DNA of 64,000 bases from Podarcis pityusensis (taxonomy: Eukaryota): the NCBI GenBank assembly GCA_964106645.2, contig OZ067044.1; one strand, 5' to 3'. This document shows positions 3,286 to 60,409 of this stretch, in pieces; positions within the stretch are counted from its first letter, which is position 1, and each line of letters opens with the position of its first letter. The notes under the pieces were generated by a model that saw only the letters and a program-made list of their open reading frames with translations, was not told the origin of the DNA and searched no databases. Position numbers and translations under genes: made by a program.

Positions 3286-4234
3286 CAGTGGTGCCCCGCA
3301 AGACGAATGCCTCGCAAGACGGAAAACTCGCTAGACAAAAGGGTTTTCCGTTTTTTGAGCTGCTTCGCAAGACGAATTTCCCTATGGGCTTGCTTCGCAA
3401 GACGAAAAACAAAAACGTCTTGCAAGTTTGTTTTCTTTTTCTTAACACCGTTAATACAGTTGCGACTTGACTTCGAGGAGCAACTCATAGAACGCGGTGT
3501 GGTAGTTAAACTTTTAAAATTTTTTGGGGGGTTTTTGGATTTTGGGTTGGGGTGTTTGGAATTCAAGGACTTGGTGTTGGGGAGGGGTTTGCAAGAATCT
3601 GGAAGCTTGTTTTTTTTCCCCTGCATTTTTATGATTTTCTGTGACCATTGGGCCACTCTGCTGTTTTTTAAAAAAAATTCTGGATTTGAATTTCTGTGTG
3701 GTGGGTGGCTGGGGGAACAGTTGAGGAGGGGTTTGCAAGAATCTGGAAGCTTGTGTGGTTTTTTTTCTGAATTTTTATGATTTTCTGTGACCATTGGGCC
3801 ACTCTGCTGGTTTTTTTTAAAAAATTCTGGATTTGAATTTCTGTGTGGTGGGTGGCTGGGGGAACAGTTGAGGAGGGGGTTCTTCAGCAAGAAGCAAAGA
3901 GTGGAAGAGGAACCTTCTTCGAGTTGTCCCCCAGAGTCTTAGAAAATGTACTGTACACTTTGTTGATTTTTAAATGTTTTTCTGTCATGTTTAGAAACTT
4001 AATTTATTGCTCCTTCAATTTTTGAAATGCTCTTTACAGTATGTGTGACTTTAAAGAGCACTTAATAAACTCTTGTTGTACCAAATTTGGCTTTGTTTGG
4101 ACTTTTTTGACCAAAGGAACGCATTAATTGAATTTCAATGCATTCCTATGGGGTTTTGTGCTTCGCAAGACGAAAAATTCGCTAGATGAAAAAACTCGTG
4201 GAACAAATTAATTTCGTCTTGCGAGGCACCACTG
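3286..4234. mobile_element. Tc1/mariner (Tigger-like) non-autonomous element with an internal ~144-bp tandem duplication
   Basis: 22-bp TIRs CAGTGGTGCC(C/T)CGCAAGACGAA, TA TSDs at 3284-85 and 4235-36; duplication ~3581-3878. Confidence 0.9.
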
Positions 4235-5479: not shown

Positions 5480-7200
5480 TAGCGGGGACGAAGAAAGGCG
5501 CACCGCGCGCTTCTTGGCTACTTCTTCAGCGACTGGGCTAACTGTTCGGGGGCAAAGGAGGAGCCACTGTCATCCGGGATGAGCCAACTCTGCTGGATGG
5601 GATGCCCCCCCCTCGCCCCAATTAAGAAGGCAGACAGAATCGAGGACCGAAACTGGAACAAAAGCTTTTTTCAGCGGGGGTGGGGCGTTTGGCTCCGGAA
5701 ATGCCCACAATTTGTCTGCATGGAGACACCAGGCAGCTGCACCCGCGGATGGTCACGAGGGGCAGATTGCGGGATGATCCCATCGGGGAAATATGGGGCT
5801 CCCAGCGCACGTGGCGCTTGATCTAATCTGCCGTCCACACAAAGGGGTCCCCCCCCCGCCTTTCCCGGCACAGAGCATCCATTCAGAGATGCTCATCCCC
5901 GCCCGCTTGCCCGAGGGAGGTGCGCGCCTTCTCTCTGTCCCCCTCCCTCCGCGGGCGCTGCAGCCCCCGACTTGCCAGCCAGACGGACAAAGAGCTGCTC
6001 TTCTGTTACCGTTTCGGATCTGGTCTGTGTTGGTCTGTTTAAAAAAAAGAGAGAGAGATTAAACCTTTGATCTGGCTGCGGAATTCCCTTTTTGGGTGGG
6101 ACGGGAAAATGCGCCACATTCTAACGGAACCAGTACCTGAGCGGGGAGAAATTCGGCAGGAAAAGCCCGCCTTGGCACGGAGAGGAAATGCTTCTGCGGA
6201 ATTTCTGCCCCGTCGAGGCGCAGCAGCTGGTTATATGTACTGTATGCATGTCATGACACCCCCCCCCCCCGCCAGCGCCGAGGTGCGAGTTCTCACATCA
6301 GCTTCCCTTGCCCGAACCCCGATATTATTTAATGTTCATAAGCAGATAAAACAAGTCGCCCTTCGGAAATGGCGCATTTATTATAGAACAGCCAAGATCA
6401 CAACGCTGTGCGCTGGCGGGGAGAAAAAGCCGCGGCGATGGCGAAGAGGCGCCTGTTTGGGTCAATTCTTGGGGGGGGGGGAGGAGGGAAGCGGCGTTTC
6501 GCCCCCTCCTTTCCGGGTCGCCTCCTGCTCGGGGGCTCCAGCGGGCAGCGCTCAGCCTGCGCGCCCCTCGAGGCGGCCGACTCCCCGGGAAGACCTCGTC
6601 ACTATGGCAACAGGGGCTTGCAAGAAGAAGAGGAAGAAGAGTGCGCGTGCGTCGGCTTGTCCTCCCTCCTGCCGCCCCCTCTTCCTTCTCCCGGCTGCCC
6701 GGACTTCTCTCGCGCCCGCCCCTCCTCCGCGCACCCAGACACCTCCTTCGGCGCCCAAGGCGCAGACCCCTGGAAGAGGAGCGTCGTATTCCGGGGCCCC
6801 TCAGCCGCCGCCCAGCACCTCTCCTCACGAGGCGGCTGCAAGGGACTCCGGCTTGAGAGCTCTCCAGGGCGACGCGAGATGCCTGGCGGCTTTCCTCTGC
6901 CCCGACCCGGCACCCTGGGGTGCCCTCGCTCCGCACCCAGCGAGCCTTCTGGGGGCTGAGCCTCGAGGAAGCCTGCGGACGGGGGGAGAGGGAGGAATTA
7001 TGCGGGGCGGGGCTTGCCTCCCCCCAATATTTTATTCAAGTTGCCACCTCTGGCTTCTTGGGCTCTTGTGCTCCTCACTTCGCCCCCACCATTAATCTTA
7101 CCTGTTTTCCTTTTGCTTCCTTTGTTGCTGTCGGCAAATGGCATTCTTGGAAGGGGCGAGGGACGGGGTCTTCTCTTTGGCGCCCGCCCCCCCATTATGC
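5480..7200. promoter_or_regulatory. CpG island downstream of Pcdh-gamma (promoter of an unidentified gene, or an enhancer)
   Basis: High CpG density; X-box 6598-6611, ETS/YY1-like CGGAAATGGCGC 6364-6375, NRF1-like GTGCGCGTGCGT 6641-6652, GC boxes ~7003-7013. Confidence 0.75.
6598..6611. promoter_or_regulatory. RFX X-box motif GTCACTATGGCAAC
   Basis: Close match to the 14-bp X-box consensus (GTTGCCATGGCAAC type) inside a CpG island. Confidence 0.65.
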
Positions 7201-9689
7201 TCCCTGCCCCTTTTTGGACTGTCCTAAGCAAAGGCCTTCTGCTTAAAGACCGAAGGGAACCAGCCGCCCAGGAGCTTAGCCTGCTGGGGTTTTTTGAAGG
7301 GTGGGGGGAATAGTTTGAGCAAATGGTGGAGGGAGACTGGAGGCCTGCAGGGAAGCTGGCACCTGGTGCACGTCTGACATTTTATGAATTAAGATGGTGC
7401 TGACAGGCAGTTCCCCTCCCCCGCTTCTTTAGGACTAGCTTGATAAAGGACCAAACTAGGAGTAATGACCGGGCAGTCTGTGAGGCAAACAAGACAGCTA
7501 CCTTGGGCAGCAGAATCCAAGGGGCGCAGCCACTGACACCAAAGAAGTGGGGACAAATGGCAGTGGCTTCCAGGTTCCGGCAAGATCTTGCAAGACTGGT
7601 GCAAGATGTCACCAGAACTTGGAACCTGCCACCACTGCCGCGTGACCCCAGGAAGCAAGGCTTCAGCAGGGGTGGCAAGGGGTCACTTTCCCGATTTTGC
7701 CTCTGGCAGCAAAATGGGATGGGCTTCCACTGAGTAAAGGCAGCACTCAGCAGTAAGCGTTTGTATGTATTTTTAATTATTTGTGCTGATTTTCGTTGTT
7801 ATGTAGATAATAAATGGACCAAATAAGTAAGTATAGAACAATAACACAAAAGGGAGGGGATTTCCTACTCATCACCACTGAGCTCTTACTATGTGGTTGA
7901 GGTGGGTACTGAAAAATAAAGACAGTATTGCTGCCATCTTAGTGGAGCTTTGCCATTGCAAAAAGCTATCTATGCTAGATGGCTTAGTTATTGGGCATGC
8001 CAATTTCATATGTATAAACCTTCCACAGATGCAAAAATTCCATTGCTTATGGACCAGAGGCCAAGGGAGGCCTTTGCAATATCCAGACTCACAGTGATTG
8101 AAGATCAGTTCGTAGAACAGAATCAGAAGCCGTACTGTGAAATGGGTTTGCAGACTCTGTATTATGGAACTGCCTGACCCTGAAGATATTCATGGAGGCC
8201 TCTGCTTCATGTACTTCCACTACCACCAGAAGTACTACAGGCTGGCATGGTGACTGACAGGGCCTTTTCTGTGACGGCAAGGAGGCACCAAGCCCAGAGA
8301 AGCTTTTCTCGTACTGTTGCTGCTTGTCTTTCAGTGGATCATTAATACCTTCCCCCCCCTCCCCGGCCATGTTTAGGTCTGCTGTTTTAGACTTTTTTAA
8401 AAAACACCAATGTTTCTTTTTAAAAAAATAACAGATGCTGTTAGCCAACTGTTATATATATATGTAGCTTAAAATATTGCAAATATAAATAAAATAATCA
8501 TGGTTGGCCTAGCATGGTGACTAAATTGACAAACTGCTTCTATACCTTAGGACCTCAGCATTTAGTGGCCAAGTAAACAAAGCTAAAACAGAAAGATCTG
8601 AAGTTTAGACCTAAATTTGGTCTGTGGGCTGGATGCTCTCCACCCCATGATTAGCCCATTGTACATTGAGAATCTTAGAGTTGTGGTTTTGTGTGACGTC
8701 TAACCTGAGTCTTTACCATAATTAGCCCCACAGGCCCCTCCCACTTCTTTTTAGGTGCAAGCCCTCCTTCCTGTAGCACTCCTGACATCTGCAGATTGCC
8801 CAGGATGGCTCCAGCCAGCAACAAGGCGAGGAGAAATTCAGTACTGTGCATTTTGGAAGCTTTTCATGTACAGGAACTGCGGGAATAGACACGGGGCTTA
8901 TGCTCAACAGAGTGTAGGGTGTGTTTACAGCTGATTGTGTTCCCATTTCATTTGCAAAGTCCACATCATGTTGCCCTCAAACAACAATTGCCCTCAAACA
9001 ACAGTGGGAATGCTTCCTTTAAGCCGGCAATGCCTGGTACACATCACCTAAAAGCAATTAATGCATTTTTTGTTGTGGAAATACTGGTTTCACTCTCATG
9101 CAAATTTAATCATTTGCTTAATTGACTGACAGCACAACCCTACGTTTGTTCAGTATTAAGTCCTATTGAATTCAGTTGAACTTACTCCAAGTTAAATGTG
9201 CATAACACTCTAAATATGCATAGGATGCAAGTAGTCATGACTAAATTTCCAGTGAAATAATTTTAGACCCATTAGGCCATACTATCTATATTTAAGCGCT
9301 GGCTGTTCTGCACCCCCTTTGTATCCTCTTAGGCTTCCTTGCCTCAGTATTTTGGGCGGTCCTCCCTTGTGAACAATGCGCCCTGCTCCTGCAGTTTTCT
9401 TTACAGAAGCTGGCATAGGGAAGTTTAGTAGGTGACACTTTTCTCAGGACCTTATTTCCATGTCAGGAAAGACTTTGGCTGCTTAATGTCTATGTGTGAG
9501 GCACAGGAACAGGGTAAGTCAAAGAAACGTAAGTTGACAGTCTCATTTCTTAGAAAGAAGCCCAGGCTTTGCCTAGATGGATCACCTTCCTTCTCCCACG
9601 CTGTCCACCAAGTTTGACAGGCTAGTTCCAAGCAACCCAGCACTCTGACCAAAAATGAAAGCTGTCCAAGAAAGTCCTGCTATAATGTT

Positions 9690-13705: not shown

Positions 13706-13962
13706 TTACTTCTTCTCCTTCTTCCCTGACTTCTTCTTGTTTCCACCTCCGGAGGCTGCAGGTTTCCCATCCCGCTTGGCTGCAGAATTGGAGAGAGTGG
13801 CTGTGCTGCCAGGGATGTACACGTTCTGTCTGTAGTCAGGGACGTGCTGCAGGGTGAACTGGGGGCCATACCTGGTGCTGAGGCCCATTGTGCCTGCTGC
13901 TGTTGCTCCTCCTCCCAGAGTAGAATTCCCATCAGGATTTGCAGCGGCGGCGGCAGCGGCTT
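13706..13962 (-). CDS. PCDHG: Pcdh-gamma constant exon 3, coding part ([19 protein letters not shown]...[22 protein letters not shown]...[11 protein letters not shown])
   Basis: Pyrimidine tract then gtgtag|AAGCC acceptor. Phases 59+89+257=405 nt close at TAA 13706-13708. Conserved Lys-rich C-terminus. Confidence 0.96.
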
Positions 13963-23295: not shown

Positions 23296-23384
23296 CATTT
23301 GCTGATGCAAGAATCATGGCTTGAAGCATTTCTGTATCAAACTGGTTGTTTGGCCAAGTCCCATTCTCATCCCCATTCTGAGAC
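23296..23384 (-). CDS. PCDHG: Pcdh-gamma constant exon 2 (89 bp; [29 protein letters not shown])
   Basis: Acceptor ctccttag|GTCT, donor AATG|gtcagt; canonical [19 protein letters not shown] motif. Confidence 0.96.
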
Positions 23385-33142: not shown

Positions 33143-33201
33143 CCACTGGTTCCTGGTCTCTGGGCCTGAGAGAAACGCCAGTCTGTGTTAGGTTGTGCTT
33201 G
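33143..33201 (-). CDS. PCDHG: Pcdh-gamma constant exon 1 (59 bp; [20 protein letters not shown])
   Basis: Acceptor tttctcttgcag|CAAGCA, donor GTGG|gtgagt. Length and peptide match the known gamma constant exon 1. Not in the ORF track. Confidence 0.96.
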
Positions 33202-36684: not shown

Positions 36685-39120
36685 CCCATCAGAGGGACTC
36701 TGCAAAACACTGCCTGCCTGCTCAAAGGCAAGCATGCTTTCTGCTGTAGTGGAATGACTGAAAGGTTTAACAAAAAAGAATTCGCCCTGTTCAGACATTG
36801 GAGAGAGACAAGACTTGTAGTGCTGAGCTCCAGCTCCGCCCACTTCAAGGTATCTGATAAAGCCTTCGGGATGTGGGCGCCCAGTGAAATTTATGGTGGA
36901 TTTCCTGTCTGTCCTCTTACTACAGCAGTGTGACATGAACCAGCTGGGGACACAGAGGCCAGATCTGAAGCACCTGGCCCCCACAATAACCAACATTACA
37001 CAAGAGACCAGAGAGATGGCCACAAGAGAGATGATAAGGTAGAGAGTTAGGCTGGGGGCTCTGGAAGGTGATTTGGGGAGAAGGTCCAAGGACTTGGAAA
37101 AGTCCTGCACAGCATTATCCTCTGAGGAAATCACAAGAACCAGTGAGGCTGAGAGAGACGGCACTCCATTGTCTCTTACTTCTATCACCAACCTGTGGGA
37201 CACCCCAGGCTCCCTCAATGCCCGAACAGCCCGGATCTCTCCTGAGTGGCGTTCCACTTTGAACGGGGTGGCTTCATTGGCATCCTGAAGCAAACTATAT
37301 GACAGCCAAGCATTGTGGCCACTGTCAGCATCCACAGCCACCACTTTGGTCACCAGGAATCCAGGTTCCACCGGGAGCAGAACTGGCTGGTGAAAGGCAG
37401 AGCCCTTGGAGACTTGCGGGTGCACAATCACCGGGGCGTTGTCGTTCTGGTCCACAACAAACAAGTGAAGAGTGGCTGTGCTGCTCAGGGGTGGGAAACC
37501 CGAATCCTTCACCTCCACTGCAACTTGAAAGACTTTCTCTTGCTCATAGTCAAGCATCCTGGATGTGTAAATGCTGCCATTCTCTTGGTTGATGTGGAAA
37601 TAGGTCGAAATGGGTAAGCCATGATTTCCATTGTCCACAATGGAGTAAGACAGCTTGGAGTTGACACCTGCATCCGGATCTGAGGCTGACAGAGAAAAAA
37701 CTAGAGTCCCAGGGGAAGTATTTTCCTCCACATGAGCAGTGTATGAAGGGATGGAGAAAGTGGGTGCATTGTCATTAACATCTGAGACTTGAATAAATAT
37801 GTTTTTGTGGGTGGATTTTTGAGGCATTCCAGAATCTGTTGCTTTAATTGTGATATTATATCCAGCAGCCTTCTCTCGGTCCAGGGGCCCATTGGTCACC
37901 AGTGAATAATGTCCCTTAAAGGAAGACACCAGTTTGAACGGGATGTGCCTGGTAATCTCCAAGTGGACTTGCCCATTTTCCTCAGAGTCGTTGTCCTTTG
38001 CTTGGATCAGGGCAATGACTGTTCCTGTGGGTGCATCTTCTTGCACTGGGCTAGAGAGGGAAGTCAGCATAATCTCTGGGCGGTTGTCATTGACATCAAC
38101 AAGTTCCACTCTGATGTTGCAGTGACCCTCCATGGCAGGGGACCCCTTGTCTTTTATGTAGATAGCTATCTCGTAAGCATTCGCTTCTTCGTAGTCCAGC
38201 AGAGCTTTGGTCCTGATCTCCCCTGTCTGGGGATCCAAGCTAAACAAGTCAAGGAGCTTCAGAGGTGCGCTATTGCTGGCTTTGAGGAAATACTCCATCT
38301 CTCCATTAGGACCTTCATCTAAGTCCGTAACATTGAGCTTAGTTACAACAGTCCCCACCTGGACGTTTTCCTCCAAATAAACTTTGGACACTGGCGGGTC
38401 ACACACAGGGGGGTTGTCATTTGCATCCAGGACGTGGACTGTCACCTGGGCAGTCCCAGACTGAACAGGATTCCCACTATCCAGAGCTGTCAGGACTAAG
38501 TGATGGACAGCGGCTTTTTCCCTGTCTAGAAGCTTCTCCAGCACAATTTCGGGCATTTTGACCCCGTCCCCCCTGACGTTAATGCTCAAGGCAAAATGTT
38601 CGCTTGGGCTAAGCTCATAGGTGGCAATGGAGTTGGAGCCCGTGTCCGGGTCTTCGGCGGCTTCCAGGCGCAAGCGGGTGCCCGGGTTGGCCACCTCGGT
38701 GATTTCCAAGGAAACCCTGTCCTTCGGGAACTTGGGGGCGTTGTCGTTCACGTCCAGGATCTCCACCTCCACCCGGTGTAGCTGCAGGGGGTTCTCCAGC
38801 ACCAGCTGGAGAGGGAAGGAGCACGTGGGGCTGGAGCTGCACAGAGCTTCGCGGTCCAGCCTCTCGTGGACCAGCAACATGCCGTCGGCGAGGTTGACAT
38901 GGAAGTAGTGGCGCATCCCGTCGCTGACCAGCTGCAGGCGGCGAGCGGACAAGCTCCGCACGTCCACGCCTAGGTCCTTCGCCACGTTCCCCACGGAAGA
39001 GCCTGGGTCCCGGTCCTCTGGGATGGAGTAGCGAATCTGCGCGGGGATGAGCCCTGGCAGGGACAAGACGGCAGCCACCAGCGCCAGCAGCTGCCACGAC
39101 CAGCTCTGCCCGCCGCCCAT
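36685..39120 (-). CDS. Last additional C-type protocadherin gamma variable exon before the constant region (812 codons)
   Basis: Signal peptide ...IPAQIRYSIPED, six ECs, PAMEGHCNIRVEL in EC3, TM LTLYLIISL, cytoplasmic IRYLEV...YKSCLSP.SE..EF.F. ATG in GGCATGG context at 39120. Donor GGG|GTAAGA after 36685, phase 0. Confidence 0.93.
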
Positions 39121-39500
39121 GCCTGGCTCCTTTGCGCGCAAGGATGGCCGTCTCCAGCGGCTGCCTCTGCTCCAGGTATCCAGCCCGGGGGTGGCCGCTG
39201 CTGCCTCCGGACCCCGCCGCAGTCCGGTGCCCCCCGCCCCGCCCCCCAGGTCTGCTCCTGGCGGCTCCGGGGTGACCTGAGAGGTGCTGTGCAGCGGAAA
39301 GGCGCGGGCTGCAGCTGGAGAGGCGGGAGGGGGGAGCGGGGGGATTTTAAAGCGCTCGGATCAGCAGCAGCTCATTGGCAAAAGGAGCAGCAGAGAAAAG
39401 GGGCTGTGAAATGGATACAGACAAGCGGCAATTCCCTCCTCGGCGGCGGCGGCGGCGGCAGCAGCAGCAGAGAAGCCCCTTCCCCGAAACGCACACACAC
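38620..39500. promoter_or_regulatory. CpG island over the promoter and EC1 of the last variable exon
   Basis: Dense CpG, (GGC)n tract at ~39442-39458, CCAAT box at 39370-39379. Confidence 0.8.
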
Positions 39501-39988
39501 CCTGCTGCTCCCCCCTCCCCAATCTCTCTTGCCACCAGTTTTCCCTCCCTGCGCTTCCCATTCCTTTCCCAGCGCAGCAGAGAGACTTGGAGGGCTGACC
39601 CAAGGGAGCCATTGGCCAGAAGAGCTCCCTTGATGCCCCTCTTGGTGGAATAGCAGGAATCGAAGGTGCAGAACGCAGACAGGGCGAGCTGCTGACGGCA
39701 GCTGTAACTCCAGGAGGGGGGGAGGGGGCTACTCTACCCTCCTGCAACCTCTTCACTTCAATCCCCTCCCCCCTCCCCCTCCCCCCGCTCATAAAGAAAG
39801 AGAGGAAAATTAGGCACACAAAGCTTTGGAGCAGATAGGTGCAATGTATCACAGCCTATGCTTGAGACCACGCACTGATTCCTCACCCCCACCCCAGGCA
39901 CTTCTCCTAGGTGCAGGGAAACTCAAAAGAAAAGAAAGGTGGTGCCATGGCTGGAACAAAATAGGGACACTACATGGAAAATTCTCAC

Positions 39989-42427
39989 CTTGCCAAAGAA
40001 GCTGGGTTCAGTGAGATTGCTGCAAGAGGCTGTCCTAAGTGTCAGATTAGGTTTCATGAATACAAATTCGCTAATGTCTGAGACAGGAGAAAAGCAGGAT
40101 CTGTATCCACGGGCAGGAGGTCCAGAAGTGGCCACTTGCACTCCTATCATGGCATCTCCAGGGCTCAGCTGATAATGGCAATGTCCCATCACGTGATCTG
40201 AAGCATCTTGAAGCCCACCAGCTTTGCTTCCACAGCATCCAAAGATGGTAGATGTTGCACGTGAATCACGGCGGAGGCATCGAACTCCCAAGGCCACCAA
40301 AGCCATCAGCGAGATGGTGGAAATTGCTGCCAAGGAGATGATAAGGTACACAGTCAATGTGGGAGGTCCCTCAGTTTCCACTGAGTGAGCTGTTAACCCC
40401 AGAAAGGTTTCAGGGCTGCTCTCCTCCAAGAGCACCATCACAGTGACTGAGGTGGACAAGGAAGGATCACCTGAGTCTTTGACAACCAGGACAAGGTCCT
40501 GGGTAGGATTGTCTATGTCCTGTAATGCTCGTGTAGTCCTCACCTCCCCGCTACGGAGGGCCATGCTGAAAATACCAGGGTCTGTGGCTTGCTCTACATG
40601 GTAAGAGAGCCAAGCATTTCGCCCAGAGTCCAAGTCCACTGCCATAATTTTTGTGATTAAGGCATTGGCTGCAGTAGATCGTGGAATTCTGAACTGTACA
40701 ACAGAATCTTTCCCAGTAAAGGGGAATCGAATCCAGGGTGCATTGTCATTCTGATCTAGGAGGTAGATGTGCACCATGATTCTGTTGCAGAGAGGAGGCG
40801 AGCCACCATCACACGCCTCCACCAGGAACTGAAAATGATTTGTATGCTCATAATCAAAAGGGCTCTCTGCAAAGACATCTCCATTTGTTGGGTTGATGGA
40901 GACATAAGAGGTGAGGTCCTCAATCAATCCTTGCCCTGGGCTCGCCAAAACAGAATAAGACAAACGAGAGTTCTGGTCCTTATCAGAATCTGTTGCAGAA
41001 ACTCTAAGCAGTACCACCCCCACTGGATTGTTCTCTTCTATGACGGCTTCATAAAATGGTCTGTCAAAATGAGGTGGGTTGTCATTGACATCTGCCAGAG
41101 TTATGGAGAAAGAGGTGTGCTCAGAAAGAGGTGGATTCCCTAAGTCAAAGGCATAGATGGTGACGTTGTATTGCGGAGTGCTCTCACGATCTAGCTGCTC
41201 ACTGGTGAGCAAGGAATACTGGTGCTCAAAGTCTTTCCGAAGTTTGAAAGGAAGGTTTCTGGGCAGATCACACCGGACTTTCCCTTGATCCCCAGAGTCT
41301 CTATCCTTGACATGTATCACAGCAACCACAGTGCCAGGAGGCGCATCTTCACCCATAGAGCTGGAGAAAGAGGTGAGAATAACTTCAGGTGCATTGTCGT
41401 TGACATCCGTGACTTCTACCATAACACTGCAGTGTTCCTCCATAGTAGGGGAGCCCATGTCCTTAGCCTCCACTTCGATCTCATAGACATTAGCCTCTTC
41501 AAAATCCAGGCTCCCTTGGACACGGATCTCTCCCGTAGTCTCATTGATAGCAAATATCCTGCGCAAGGCTTCTGAGTTATGGCTGCTGAGGGAATACTGC
41601 ACCTCTCCGTTAGGCCCTTCATCCAAGTCTGTTGCATTCAGCTTAATCACCAGGGTTCCTGGAGGAGAGTTTTCTACTAAGCGAGTATAATAAGTAGGTT
41701 TGTCAAAAACCGGATGATTATCATTGGCATCCAGAATGTGGACAGCAATTCGAATAGCGCTAGATTTGGGGGATATGCCCCCATCTTCAGCTGTCAGGAC
41801 CAAGTGGTGGACAGCGATGTGCTCCCTGTCCAGGGCTTTCTCCAGTACTAGCTCTGGGAATTTGGTGCCATCTGTACGTGCCTTCACGTTGAGGTTGAAG
41901 TTCTCATTGGCGCTGAGGTGGTAGGTCTGTAAAGTGTTAGTTCCTACATCTGAATCCTGTGCGTGTGGGATGGGGAAACGGGCACCCAGTGCAGCCAGTT
42001 CATAGATCTGCAGAGATATTGTGCTACTTGAGAACACAGGCGCATTGTCGTTGATATCCAGAATCTCCACTTCGATGCGATAGAACTCCACTGGGTTTTC
42101 AATAGCAAGTTTGAGATGCAAGAAACAGCGCAGGTTCTGCCCACAGAGCTGCTCCCTGTCTATTCTGTCATTGACTATTATGATTCCAGTGTTCACATTC
42201 ACAGAGAAATACTGGGAGTCAGAATCAGAAAGCACCTGCAGATTGGCAGCTGCAAGCTTTGTCACATCCATTCCTAAGTCCTTAGCAACATTTCCTACAA
42301 AGGCTCCTCGAGTGAGTTCCTCTGGGACAGAGTAACGGATCTGTGCAAAACAGTCACTCAGAAACAGACAGAAGGCAAAGGCATGCACGAGTCCCAAACG
42401 CCAGGCAGAGTTTTCTGTTCTGAGCAT
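39989..42427 (-). CDS. Additional C-type protocadherin gamma variable exon downstream of C5 (813 codons)
   Basis: Signal peptide ...CFAQIRYSVPEE, six ECs, C4/C5-type MEEHCSVMVEV in EC3, TM LTVYLIISL, cytoplasmic YRSCFSP.SD.SEF.F motif. First ATG at 42427. Donor AAG|GTGAGA after 39989, phase 0. Confidence 0.93.
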
Positions 42428-47533: not shown

Positions 47534-49984
47534 CTCGTTTGGCTCTCGGGAAAGGCTGCAGGCCAGAAGTGTGCCTGTGCTGTTGATATCCTGCTGAGTG
47601 ACTGGTGTAGCTATCCTGAAATTCCTCCCTTCTGAAAAGTGGGTCTGGCCAGGCCTTAGGAGGGTAAAAGGAGAAACAACATCTCCCCCAATGAAGGCTG
47701 TAGGGAATTCCATTTTTTCCTCCTGGCTCAAGCGTACTGAGAACGTGTCAAAGTGTCCTCCCACAGGAATAGAGTTCCTACCCTTCAGGTCGCTGGTCCA
47801 ACCCACATCTGAGTGTCTTCCTTTCAATCTTTTAAGACACTTCATAGCTAAAAACACAAAGGCCAGAGCAGAAAGTCCTGAGATTGTGATTAGAGCAATA
47901 ATGAGTTGCAAGGTCAGGTGAGACAGCCCTTCTTGTTCCATGCTGGACTCTCTGAGGTCTGCTGTGCCCAACTCATGCTCATGCTCTAGATTAAGAATCA
48001 GAGTGGCTGTGGCAGACAGAGGTGGCTTCCCATTGTCCAAGATCTCAACAACCAACTCTTGGGAAGGGGCGTCTTGTTCCAGGAGGGCTCGGACGGTTCG
48101 GATCTCTCCTGTGAACGCCGAGACTTGGAAAAGGCTTGGGTCTGTGGCTTGCTGCAGCTTATAAGAAACCCATGCATTCTGCCCAGAGTCTGCATCCACA
48201 GCTGTGACTTTGGTTACCAGGTAACCTCCTTGTGCAGAAAAAGGGACTGGCTGCTGGGCTAGGACCCCCTTCTTGGTTACAGGGTATACAACGAGAGGAG
48301 CATTATCATTCTGGTCTATGATGAAGATGGAGACAGTCACATTGGCACAGAGTGGAGGAGAACCATTATCCTTAGCTTGAATCTGGAAAACCAGTTGCTG
48401 GGTTTGCTCATAGTCAAATGAGCAGCCACTGTAGATAGTACCGTTCTCCATAACATAGACATAGGAGGAAATGGGCATTCCATTTATGATATGCTCCACT
48501 AACGAATAAGACAGGTGTGAGTTCTGCCCCAGATCAGGGTCAAAGGCAGATATAGAAATGATTGGCAGCCCCAGAGCATTGTTCTCAGTTACGAGGGTCT
48601 CATATGCAGGCTGTGAGAAGTGGGGTGGGTTATCGTTCAGGTCAGATATATTTATAAGGAAGTTTCTTTGACTGGAGAGAGGTGGAGAACCAGAATCCGT
48701 AGCTGTGATCATAACTTTGTACTGTGAGATTTCCTCCCGATCTAGGGGGCCACTGGTGATCAAAGAGTAGTGGTTCTTGAAGGAAGGTACAATCTGGAAG
48801 GGGATATCTGCAGGGAGATGAAGCTGTACTTCTCCATTTTCCCCAGAATCTGCATCACTGACTCTGAGGAGCCCTGCTGTGGTACCTGGGGGAGCATCTT
48901 CTGGTATGGTGGTGGTGAGGGAAGTGAACCTAATGATAGGCTCATTGTCATTCACATCCACTACCTCCACTAAGATGTTGCAGTGTGCATCCATGGAAGG
49001 TGACCCTTGGTCTTTGGCCCTCACATCAATTTCATACAATGTGTCATCTTCATAATCCACACTTCCCAGGACTCTTATCTCCCCAGTCTCCTCATTAAGG
49101 CTGAACATTTTCCGGATTTTCTGTGGAGTGTGGCTGCTGAAGGAGTAGGAAACTTTCCCATTTGCCCCCTCATCATTGTCTGTAGCTTGTAAATGTATCA
49201 CAAGGGTCCCCACTGGGGCATTTTCTAGTAGGCTAACTTTGTACACTGATTGGTTAAAGACAGGTGGATTGTCATTGGCGTCTATTACTGACACGAGAAT
49301 CTTTGCTGTCCCGGATTTAGCAGGAACTCCTCCATCCAGGGCTGTAAGCACCAGGGGGTAGCGCTGCTGCTGTTCTCTATCCAATGCCTTCTCTAACACC
49401 AGCTCAGGTTTGCTGCCGCCTTTATGTGACTTAACACTGAGGCTGAATTGTCCACGTGGACTCAGCTGGTAGGTGCTGACTGAATTCATGCCAATGTCCA
49501 AATCTTCAGCACTTTCCAGGGGGAAGCGGGCCCCTGGCATTGCAGACTCTGCTATCTCCAAATGGGTTAGACTGGTAAGAAAAACCGGGTCGTTGTCATT
49601 CACATCCAAGAGCTCAACTTCCACACGATGGGAGGCTGTTGGGTTTGCAAGTAGGAGCTCCAGATAGAGCAGGCAGTGTAAGCTGGGCCCACAAAGCTGC
49701 TCTCGGTCAAGCCGTTCTTTCACGACCAAGAGACCATTTGGCACCTTGGCTTCGAAGTACTTTTCAGCAGAGCCAGCCATGATCTGCAGCTGTCGGGAGA
49801 CCACCCGGGCAGCATCTAGACCCAAGTCTTTAGCCACATCCCCAACAAAGGCCCCAGGAGCTAACTCCTCAGGAATCGAATAATGGAGCTGGGTCATCTC
49901 TCCAGCGCTCTGGAGAGAGACAGAAACCAAAAGCAAAGCTCTTACTTGCCATAGCAGGAGTAGTCTTTCTTCCAGAGACAGCAT
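47534..49984 (-). CDS. C-type protocadherin gamma variable exon, gamma-C4-like by position and several residues but divergent (817 codons)
   Basis: Intact EC1-6 and TM. Strings resembling mammalian C4: AWVSY, FDYEQTQ.L.F..QA.D, DLRESS...EG.S.LTL, NISD.NDNPP.F. Lies between C3 and C5. ATG at 49984 (MLSLEERLLLLWQVRALLLV). Donor GAG|GTGAGG after 47534, phase 0. Confidence 0.9.
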
Positions 49985-57964: not shown

Positions 57965-60409
57965 CTCAGAGGACACCAGAAGCCTCTTATTTGTGCTTAT
58001 TAGCTGGTTATATATTGCAGGGTCACATCTTGTGATAGTGCTCTGGCGGCTCCCCATAGGGCTGGGAGCAAAGGGCATTTTGTACAGAAGTTCACTCTGG
58101 CGAGAGTCCGTGGTGAGGACCTGCTGGTAGAAGTTTGGAGGAGTAAATCCACTCCGCACAGTGTCTATGTGGTTGAAAGGCCCCGGGGTTCTATAAAGGG
58201 AGCTTCTGGAGGCTTTGAATATATCCTTGGATTGCCTCCACTTGTAAAATTTATAAATCCCCACCCCAACCACGGTGACAAAGAAGGCCACTGAGATCAA
58301 GATGACAGCAATGATTAAATAGAAAGTCAAGTGCTTCTTTGTTTGGGGTGTAGTGGACACAGCAGTCAAGTCTGTCAGTGTCTCCCTAGATGTCTCTGCT
58401 ACATCTACAGCAAGGGTCACTGTGGAGGACAAGGCAGGCTCCCCATTGTCTTTTATTAAGATGAGCAATGTTTGCTTGCGAGAATCTTCCTCTTGCAGAG
58501 AACGAGCTGTGCTTATCTCCCCAGAATGCAGCCCCACAGTGAACAGCCCTGGGTCAGTGACCTGAAGGAAGGAATACGAGAGCCAGGCATTGTAACCAGA
58601 ATCTGCATCCCAGGCCACAATTTTTGTGACCATGTAACCAGGGCTGACTGTGGGTGAGATGACTTCTGAGAGCGAAGAACTGTTGTTTGAGTTCGGGTAT
58701 AAGAGCCTGGGTGCATTGTCATTCTGATCTGTGACAAAAACATTGACAGTGATGTTAGTGGCGAGAGGCGGGAGGCCAGCATCACGAACCTGGACCACTA
58801 GCCTGAACTCCATGGTGCCCTCATGGTCCAAGGGGACTAGGACATATATGCTGCCATTTTCCCGGTTAATAGAAAAATACCTGCCCGCCAAGTCTCCCGA
58901 GGACATGGGACTATCCAGGATGGAGTAGGAAAGGTGGGAATTCCGGTTCAGATCCGGGTCAGAGGCACTGATGTTAAAGATCAGGGTCCCTGGAAGGTTG
59001 TTTTCCTCCACATACACATCATAGGAGGATTGTGGAAATTTAGGAGGGTTGTCATTTACATCAGATACTTTAACCAGTATTTGCTTTTCTGCCATGAGTG
59101 AGGGTGTGCCTGCATCCTGAGCTGTGATGGTGATGTTGTACTCAGAGACAAGTTCCCTGTCCAAGGGTCCTTTGGTCTGTAAGGTATAATAGTTTTTAAG
59201 GGAAGAGCTGAGGGCAAAAGGGATCCCAGAAGGTATAAAGCAATTTACTAGGCCATTATCACCAGAGTCCTGATCCGTGACACTCAGCAACGCAATCACA
59301 GTCCCTGGAGCTGCGTCTTCTGGTATTGGGCTGTATACCGACGTCACTGTTATTTCTGGGGTGTTGTCGTTCACATCCACAATCTCTACCAGCACTTTGC
59401 AATGAGCGACACCAGGATTTGAACCCTTATCTTTTGCCTGGATATAAATCTCATAAAATTTGGCTTCTTCAAAATCCAGCAACCCCTTCAGCCTCAGTTC
59501 TCCAGTGGCAGAGTCTAGGGCAAAGAGCTGTCGGACTCTGGCAGGGGTGTGACTGCTGAAAGAGTACACAATCTCCCCATTGGGGCCTTCATCCAGGTCG
59601 AAAGCTCTGGTTTGGACAACCAGGGTGTTCAAGGGTGTGTCTTCTTTCACGCTGGCTCTGTAGATGGACTGGTTGAAGACAGGGGCGTTGTCATTTGCAT
59701 CCAGGACGTCAACCAGCACCTGCAAGCTGGCCGATCGGGGTGGGGTCCCTCCATCCATCGCCGTGAGAACCAGCTGCACTTCCCGCTGCTGCTCCCGGTC
59801 CAGCTCTTTCTCCAGCACCAGCTCCGCATACTTCGTCCCGTCGCCTCGCGTCTGCACGTCCAGCACGAAGTGTGGGTTGGCGCTGAGCTGGTAGGTCTGC
59901 AGAGAGTTGCTTCCCACGTCGGGGTCCTGCGCGCTCTCCAAGGGGAAACGCGCTCCGGGGGTCACCGACTCGCTGATCTCCAGCTTCATTTGCTTGCTCT
60001 GGAAAGCCGGGTCGTTGTCGTTGACGTCCTGGATCTCCACGGTCACGCCGTACAGCACCAGCGGGCTCTCGGCCACCACCTCCAGGCTCAGCGCGCACGG
60101 CGAGAGGGCCCCGCAAAGTTCCTCGCGGTCGATGCGCTCGCTCACCAGCAACTTCCCGCTGCCCAGGTCCACCTCGAAGTACTTTCGTCCGCCGCCCGAC
60201 ACTACGCGGAGGTTCCTCGCGGGCAGCTGGGCGAGATCCAGTCCCAGGTCGCCCACCACGTTGCCCACCGAAGAGCCCCTGGGCATCTCCTCGGGGATGG
60301 CGTAGCGCGTGGCGGCGAGCGCCCGCTCCGAGACGCCCAGCCACAGCCAGAAGCCCACGACGGGCAGCCATCGCGCTCTCGGCCGGCTCCTTCCCGCGGC
60401 GCCTCTCAT
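57965..60409 (-). CDS. PCDHGC3: Protocadherin gamma-C3 variable exon (signal peptide, EC1-EC6, TM, variable cytoplasmic domain; 815 codons, ~949 aa with constant exons)
   Basis: Six cadherin repeats with DRE/DxNDNxP motifs. C3-diagnostic strings: KYAELVLE, EIYIQAKDKG.NP..AHCKVLVE, TSVYSP, SSLKNY, YKW.QS.D....SSLYRTPGP, LTTDSR, SRQ.T...CDP. First ATG at 60409 (ORF track starts at an upstream TTG). Donor GAG|GTAATG after 57965, phase 0; 2445 nt is divisible by 3. Confidence 0.95.

Follow-up and report, generated by a model that had tools for sequence, protein, structure and literature searches.

Two C-type protocadherin-gamma exons 3' of gamma-C5 in a lacertid lizard, very probably the ancient paralogs gamma-c6 and gamma-c7

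Human and mouse have three gamma C-type protocadherins, according to PMC2764143 and PMC7811963. What, then, are the two further variable exons that a preliminary description placed between gamma-C5 and the constant region of a lizard cluster? We are highly confident that the window (the whole 64-kb stretch of DNA analysed) is the 3' end of a lacertid protocadherin-gamma cluster carrying the same C-type set as anole, five variable exons in all (c3, c4, c5, c6 and c7), and that the two further exons are gamma-c6 and gamma-c7: old paralogs, already present in the tetrapod ancestor, which squamates, turtles, crocodilians and birds have retained but human and mouse lack. These exons are already known: they were described and named in anole in 2009, in a study that called the anole gamma C-types Ac-gamma-c3 to c7 (Jiang et al., 2009; PMC2764143), and the present finding repeats that one in another lizard family.

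The 3' end of the cluster

Proteins encoded in the window are 99-100% identical to Podarcis and Zootoca proteins. The features of the locus are:

57965..60409, minus strand, Pcdh-gamma C3 variable exon of 815 codons, orthologous to mammalian gamma-C3; cis position 562 is the C3-type W
47534..49984, minus strand, reptile 'gamma c4' variable exon of 817 codons, orthologous to anole c4 but not clearly to mammalian gamma-C4
43554..46004, minus strand, Pcdh-gamma C5 variable exon of 817 codons, orthologous to mammalian gamma-C5
39989..42427, minus strand, Pcdh-gamma c6 variable exon of 813 codons, with signal peptide, EC1-6, transmembrane segment (TM), variable cytoplasmic domain, phase-0 donor
36685..39120, minus strand, Pcdh-gamma c7 variable exon of 812 codons, the last before the constant region; donor in phase 0, start region CpG-rich
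37179..37180, minus strand, donor-like site inside EC6 of c7; in-frame, after codon 647, 5' of the TM
33143..33201, minus strand, gamma constant exon 1, 59 nt
23296..23384, minus strand, gamma constant exon 2, 89 nt
13706..13962, minus strand, gamma constant exon 3, coding part up to the stop codon; agrees with Zootoca model P0202

The c6 and c7 open reading frames start at 42427 and 39120 and run to phase-0 GT donors after 39989 (2439 nt) and 36685 (2436 nt), respectively. Each encodes a hydrophobic N-terminal stretch, a single TM near residue ~695, and five DxNDN/H linkers with five LDRE/xDxE motifs for Ca2+ binding. Pfam finds in each a Cadherin_2 domain, five Cadherin repeats and a Cadherin_C_2 match, the last scoring 35.3 bits in c6, above the 31.5-bit cut-off, and 30.4 bits in c7, slightly under it. 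Both thus have the anatomy of a variable exon: a single exon of ~2.4 kb encodes a signal peptide, six EC repeats, a TM and a short cytoplasmic stretch, and its phase-0 donor is followed on the same strand by three gamma-type constant exons. Reading frames, motifs, Pfam matches and TM confirm that two full, intact variable exons lie here, as first described. They are not chance reading frames, since the longest stop-free run in 20 shuffled versions of the window was 227 codons. The start region of c7 is CpG-rich (GC 0.66, CpG observed/expected 0.65) and that of c6 is not (GC 0.45, CpG observed/expected 0.29). Cis-interface positions 555 and 560 are L/M in c6 and L/V in c7, not the alpha-type R560; PMC12337331 states that cis-interface residues by themselves are without predictive power for surface delivery.

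Both exons are among the last variable exons ahead of the constant region, as is typical of C-types. A tblastn search of the 64-kb window with the five exons found no additional or broken variable exon; the 8-kb interval that separates C3 from c4 gave two weak matches only (E values of 0.03 and 0.07), and no further variable exon lies between c7 and the start of constant exon 1 at 33201.

Relation to mammalian gamma-C4

The preliminary description implied a set of C3, C4 and C5 plus two. That c6 and c7 are extra stands, but this account leaves something out: the exon at 47534-49984 has its ortholog in anole c4 (81.8% identity to DAA06627.1), which Jiang et al. (2009; PMC2764143) did not find to be orthologous to mammalian gamma-C4. 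True orthologs are easily recognised in the window: the C5 exon scores 463 bits against gamma-C5 EC1-3 (PDB 4zpo), versus 314-341 for the other four exons, and the C3 exon scores 433.5 bits against mouse Pcdhgc3 (PDB 4zi8), versus 295-311, an excess of ~120 bits across just three domains. Against mouse gamma-C4 (PDB 7jgz), all five exons score 435-467 bits, with c4 at 459, and none shows a clear excess over its paralogs. Likewise, a profile of eight lizard-c4-type sequences scores 1.20 bits per residue against gamma-C4, 1.22 against gamma-C5 and 1.20 against alpha-C2. Neither a 50%-representative search nor a search with the c4 EC6-tail region, in which fused or long cadherins dominated, returned a mammalian gamma-C4 sequence, and the best 120 matches of the EC6-tail search included no mammalian C-type. 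The residue matching gamma-C4 E78 was tried as a marker and dropped, being not diagnostic.

From these comparisons it is probable that no exon in the window is a gamma-C4 ortholog. Since the 'c4' exon is not a clear gamma-C4 ortholog and none of the five scores like one, lizards seem to have three C-types that are absent in human and mouse (c4, c6 and c7) but to be without gamma-C4, which is required for neuronal survival in mice. Jiang et al. (2009; PMC2764143) reported anole c4, c6 and c7 all to be without a human ortholog.

Alternatively, c6 or c7 could itself be the true gamma-C4 ortholog, displaced or diverged, leaving a single 'extra' exon. Mouse gamma-C4 is the top-scoring chain of EC1-4 length for both c6 (438 bits) and c7 (435 bits), and Jiang et al. 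(2009; PMC2764143) found an ortholog neither for anole c6 nor for one human C-type ('Hs-gamma-c2' in their text, read here as c4). However, these are the lowest gamma-C4 scores of the five exons (the other three score 459-467), far from the excess seen for true orthologs, and c6 and c7 lie 3' of C5 whereas mammalian C4 lies 5' of it. We consider this alternative very unlikely.

Among chains of EC1-4 length, the alternate clustered chains reach at most 411 bits with c6 and 399 with c7, below the gamma-C4 scores. With the EC1-3 chains of alpha-C2, gamma-C5 and gamma-C3, c6 scores 311-340 bits (at most 300 with others) and c7 scores 295-321 (at most 262 with others); by these scores, c6 and c7 are closer to alpha-C2 and gamma-C3-5 than to the alternate isoforms, by a modest margin.

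Predicted splicing to the constant exons

The lacertid database models use the same donors as the preliminary description, in all four full-length c6 models compared and in the single c7 model. Exons of c6 or c7 type are joined to the constant region in models from lizards, turtles, crocodilians, birds and a caecilian; together with the consensus donors, these models predict splicing of both exons to the constant exons. Of the 19 sequencing runs that contain the stretch, none is recorded as RNA, which says nothing for or against expression. The anole TPA model of c7 makes the join 9 codons downstream of the c7 donor present in the window and of the join in the other models. The internal c7 site at 37179..37180 is a consensus donor in the window, and 11 of the 44 c7-like spliced database models, from lizards and turtles, use it to join the constant region; no paper listed by searches of the openly licensed literature describes TM-less, internally spliced isoforms. 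RT-PCR by Jiang et al. (2009; PMC2764143) was limited to 'selected' variable exons.

The exons might instead be intact yet silent, or unspliced and yielding single-exon, beta-like products. Their frames do continue beyond the donor to a stop, by 21 codons in c6 and 27 in c7, but such read-through is common to the five variable exons, and the consensus phase-0 donors and the joins in models from so many lineages make this even less likely than a hidden gamma-C4.

Age, proposed roles and known systems

Identity to anole is high and one-to-one: 724/813 residues (89.1%) between c6 and DAA06629.1, 'gamma c6 isoform', and 740/812 (91.1%) between c7 and DAA06630.1, 'gamma c7 isoform', in the same clades and in the same order after C5. 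In an EC1-3 tree of 51 rows, with neither mammalian C-types nor coelacanth sequences among them, c6 falls in a 100/100 clade of 10 rows, including turtle, gharial, two birds and two newt copies, and c7 in a 100/100 clade of 11 rows, including turtles, crocodile, birds and a caecilian. Both are apart from the C5 clade, which argues that c6 and c7 are old and not C5 duplicates. The five clades remain in an open fork, with C3 placed with the A/B/beta rows at 83/90 and C-type monophyly not recovered. Fused gene models keep the exon order, as C5-c6-c7 in a bird and as C5-c6 and c6-c7 in turtles.

The least probable reading, that c6 and c7 are lineage-specific C5 duplicates, has in its favour the 'gamma-C5-like' labels that database models give to both, but identity to the neighbouring C5 (44.0% for c6, 43.5% for c7) does not exceed that to C3 or c4, and one-to-one orthologs from birds to amphibians in the EC1-3 tree refute it. 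Full-exon identity is 41.9-45.9% in all 10 pairs of the five variable exons, and DNA likeness is confined to short patches of 64-84%. The preliminary description was right that the two exons are very different from each other and from C5, that they may be auto-annotated as C5-like, and that non-mammalian surveys may already include them; its phylogenetic check, run here on EC1-3 without mammalian C-types, groups neither with C5. Its proposal of a larger ancestral C-type repertoire is supported by the anole orthology, the clades and Jiang et al. (2009; PMC2764143), who had earlier argued that the ancestral set was larger and that differential loss then reduced it.

Protein searches with c6 and c7 placed amphibian orthologs (59-61% identity) among the best 120 of 8000 scored candidates per search and no mammalian C-type; given that scope, they only suggest absence from monotremes and marsupials. 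Searches of the ESM Atlas returned generic protocadherin clusters only. Bird 'PCDGM' matches of ~60% identity were rejected as a further paralog; their identity rises abruptly from ~50% to 70%, at domains that vary with the species, a pattern that chimeric gene models would give.

By analogy with mammalian work, we propose that c6 and c7 would each be transcribed from their own promoter and cis-spliced onto the three constant exons. The proteins would bind Ca2+ at the EC linkers, form EC1-4 trans dimers that are strictly homophilic and EC5-6 cis dimers that are promiscuous, and signal through their own juxtamembrane tail and the common constant tail. Such trans binding has been demonstrated for four mouse C-types (PMC8901172); homophilic specificity and distinct signalling of c6 and c7 may be extrapolated from mouse C-types. 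Expression would most likely be constitutive or cell-type-dependent and not set by stochastic choice, as PMC7811963 describes for mouse C-types; c6 and c7 are therefore more likely to add cell-type-specific adhesion or signalling roles than combinatorial barcode diversity.

One use is in annotation: c6- and c7-type genes carry wrong C5-like or C4-like labels, and many bird models fuse two exons into a chimera. The gamma-C4 side result is weightier than the repeat of c6 and c7. Should reptiles regulate neuronal death normally without having gamma-C4, a comparison of the c4, c6 and c7 tails with mammalian gamma-C4 would be a natural experiment on gamma-C4 and neuron survival, a question relevant to the PCDHGC4 neurodevelopmental syndrome (PMC8553613). 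It is possible, if doubtful, that lizards are without a gamma-C4 ortholog and that c6 or c7 is a candidate carrier of its survival role; were that true, tail-swap rescue would reveal the minimal survival signal. None of the papers listed by searches of the openly licensed literature links a missing gamma-C4 in reptiles or birds to neuronal survival.

Among known systems, anole is the closest, with the same genes, clades and five-exon C-type block at the 3' end (PMC2764143), differing in family and in the c7 join of its TPA record. Coelacanth also has five gamma C-types at the 3' end (Lm-gamma20-24), of which Jiang et al. (2009; PMC2764143) paired Lm-gamma24 with anole c7 and Lm-gamma22 with c4, but found no c6 ortholog. 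Mammalian gamma-C3, C4 and C5 share the exon anatomy, constant exons and Ca2+ motifs, and the window contains a clear ortholog of C3 and one of C5, whereas lizard c4, c6 and c7 are without a clear mammalian ortholog and gamma-C4 is without a clear lizard one. Lastly, Xenopus tropicalis pcdh-gamma2 14-36 (PMC4978886) belong to another non-mammalian cluster, whose C-type-like distal exons outnumber those of mammals; these 23 isoforms are read by the authors as an expansion without one-to-one orthology, whereas the lizard genes are single-copy ancient paralogs.

Identity and layout of the two exons

Five long ORFs with protocadherin anatomy lie on the minus strand of the window, with starts at 60409 (gamma-C3), 49984 (reptile c4), 46004 (gamma-C5), 42427 (c6) and 39120 (c7), lengths of 815, 817, 817, 813 and 812 codons, respectively, and a phase-0 GT donor near the end of each. 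The longest stop-free run in shuffled windows was at most 227 codons (20/20 shuffles). Pairwise identity among the five exons is 41.9-45.9%, and tblastn of the window detected no further variable exon and no remnant beyond them. The last two variable exons and the constant exons are arranged as follows:

39989..42427, minus strand: c6 variable exon, 813 codons, phase-0 donor
36685..39120, minus strand: c7 variable exon, 812 codons, phase-0 donor
33201-33143, minus strand: gamma constant exon 1, 3' of the variable exons
23384-23296, minus strand: gamma constant exon 2, 3' of the variable exons
from 13962, minus strand: gamma constant exon 3, 3' of the variable exons

Each of c6 and c7 has a signal-like N-terminus, Cadherin_2 and five Cadherin repeats by Pfam, one TM, and calcium motifs comprising five DxNDN/H linkers and five LDRE-type motifs. 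Together with the reading of ORFs and donors, these features bear out the preliminary description of two intact exons ending in phase 0 at 39989 and 36685.

For the 42427 exon, a Zootoca protein is the closest match (99%), followed by DAA06629.1, the 'protocadherin gamma c6 isoform' of Anolis carolinensis (identity 724/813); DAA06630.1, the anole 'gamma c7 isoform', is in the cluster of the 39120 exon's best match (identity 740/812). Both records are from Jiang et al., 2009 (PMC2764143). Identity to Podarcis and Zootoca models is 99.3-99.8% for the c6 exon and 99.0-100% for the 39120 exon, and on this near-identity we assign the window to a lacertid lizard. The two exons are genuine and were read correctly, and they almost certainly represent the anole gamma-c6 and gamma-c7 orthologs, genes that had already been described. 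Jiang et al. described five gamma C-types in anole, c3-c7. They identified human C3 and C5 as the orthologs of c3 and c5, and coelacanth Lm-gamma22 and Lm-gamma24 as those of c4 and c7, but found no ortholog of c6; they concluded that the ancestral cluster was richer in C-types and was shaped by differential loss (PMC2764143). The larger ancestral repertoire with loss that had been suggested for this locus matches this conclusion, published already in 2009.

The start of constant exon 3 (~13935-13962, minus strand) has an alanine run in lizards and none in the turtle, bird and crocodile models compared. A GC-rich island (0.56) with low-complexity ORFs at 6000-8000, ~6 kb downstream of the last constant exon, is possibly the promoter or end of an adjoining gene, or a regulatory site, and a tandem repeat (period 147 bp, 2.1 copies, 93% alike) occupies 3576-3878.

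Age and taxonomic range of c6 and c7

We inferred an EC1-3 tree for 51 rows picked from 528 stored proteins, comprising the five window exons, orthologs, and C-like rows from amphibian, shark and fish, with alternate isoforms as outgroups; the set of proteins contained no mammalian C-type, and most chimeric and redundant models were excluded. Support is 100/100 both for the c6 clade, whose 10 rows come from lizards, turtle, gharial, two birds and newt (two copies), and for the c7 clade, whose 11 rows come from lizards, turtles, crocodile, birds and caecilian. The C5, c4 and C3 clades are distinct from both. The branching order among clades is not resolved, and C3 grouped with A/B/beta rows at 83/90. 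The newt Pleurodeles contributes two c6-type copies, P0147 and P0148.

In fused gene models the exon order is preserved: a galliform bird has C5-c6-c7, turtles have C5-c6 and c6-c7, and alligator has C5-c6. Among the best 120 of 8000 scored candidates per exon, amphibian orthologs occur at 59-61%, and mammals are represented solely by fused models of alternate isoforms, at ≤45%. Given the clades, the conserved order, and the listing of amphibian but no mammalian orthologs, we conclude from sequence that c6 and c7 are both older than the amphibian-amniote split, and they look to have been lost in mammals.

Relation to mammalian gamma-C3, C4 and C5

Exons were compared with solved mouse ectodomains, including 4zpo (gamma-C5 according to PMC8901172) and 7jgz (gamma-C4). 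The 60409 exon scored 433.5 bits against gamma-C3 (other four exons, 295-311), and the 46004 exon 463 bits against 4zpo (other four, 314-341). Against 7jgz, the exons starting at 60409, 49984, 46004, 42427 and 39120 scored 466, 459, 467, 438 and 435 bits; by this score none of the five stands out as a gamma-C4 ortholog, and c6 and c7 are lowest. The 49984 exon (47534-49984, minus strand), which occupies the C4 slot between C3 and C5, shares 81.8% identity with anole c4. A profile built from 8 c4-type sequences gave 1.20, 1.22 and 1.20 bits per residue against gamma-C4, gamma-C5 and alpha-C2. At this level of comparison, the exon shows itself to be an anole c4 ortholog without ortholog-level similarity to mouse gamma-C4, in agreement with Jiang et al. 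(PMC2764143). The comparison with gamma-C4 covered ectodomain scores, and a fast-evolved ortholog may still be among the window exons. Databases label the exon 'gamma-C4-like' or 'C5-like'.

If lizards lack gamma-C4, its role in neuronal survival may be performed by another isoform, or may be a mammalian innovation. Whereas c6 and c7 occur across sauropsids, the range of reptile c4 (P0439, P0161) is narrower: its best 120 matches include lizards and partial or chimeric turtle models, and no bird or crocodilian. It is possible that c4 was lost or decayed in archosaurs and turtles. Because they span sauropsids, c6 and c7 are better candidates to stand in than reptile c4; nonetheless, we consider it unlikely that either replaces the missing gamma-C4 survival signal. 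Among the openly licensed papers listed by our searches, none linked missing gamma-C4 in reptiles or birds to neuronal survival.

Splicing, promoters and expected function

Evidence for c6 and c7 splicing comes from database models; the RT-PCR of Jiang et al. was restricted to selected exons (PMC2764143). Among 44 spliced models of the c7 type, 25 align up to and including the last c7 codon in the window, 8 join elsewhere, and 11 (6 lizard, 5 turtle; Podarcis, Anolis, Pogona, Elgaria and five turtles) join the constant exons after codon 647, at an internal donor:

37180/37179, minus strand: internal in-frame donor-like site, consensus, in c7 EC6, upstream of the TM

Its use would give a predicted c7 form without a TM, possibly secreted. 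In the window, as in further models from lizards, turtles and birds, the c7 donor lies 9 codons upstream of the junction annotated in 2009 for the anole TPA c7 (P0218). Among database proteins named 'PCDGM/gamma-C5' (P0027-P0114), many from birds and some from turtles are chimeric, with a 5' part from C5 or c6, a 3' part from c7 and a breakpoint that varies; the most likely explanation is an artefact that arose when mammalian C5 was projected onto this locus.

The start regions of C3 (60109-61009; GC 0.71, CpG o/e 1.00) and c7 (38820-39720; GC 0.66, o/e 0.65) are CpG-rich, unlike the corresponding regions of c4, C5 and c6 (o/e 0.29-0.41); the c7 composition hints at broader expression. At the cis positions (gamma-B7 numbering), c6 has F532/L555/K558/M560 and c7 has H532/L555/K558/V560. 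Since both lack the alpha-type R560, we lean towards independent delivery to the surface, although these cis residues alone do not decide delivery, according to PMC12337331.

In mouse, as described in PMC7811963 and PMC8901172, every variable exon has a promoter of its own, and its transcript is joined by splicing to three constant exons. Expression of C-types is either constitutive or tied to cell type. EC1-4 mediate strictly homophilic trans binding and EC5-6 promiscuous cis binding, and special functions are ascribed to cytoplasmic tails. By analogy, c6 and c7 would each be transcribed from a separate promoter and joined to the three constant exons by splicing, with expression that is constitutive or by cell type; their proteins would bind strictly homophilically in trans through EC1-4 and promiscuously in cis through EC5-6, and any special functions would probably be exerted through their cytoplasmic tails, as in the mouse C-types.
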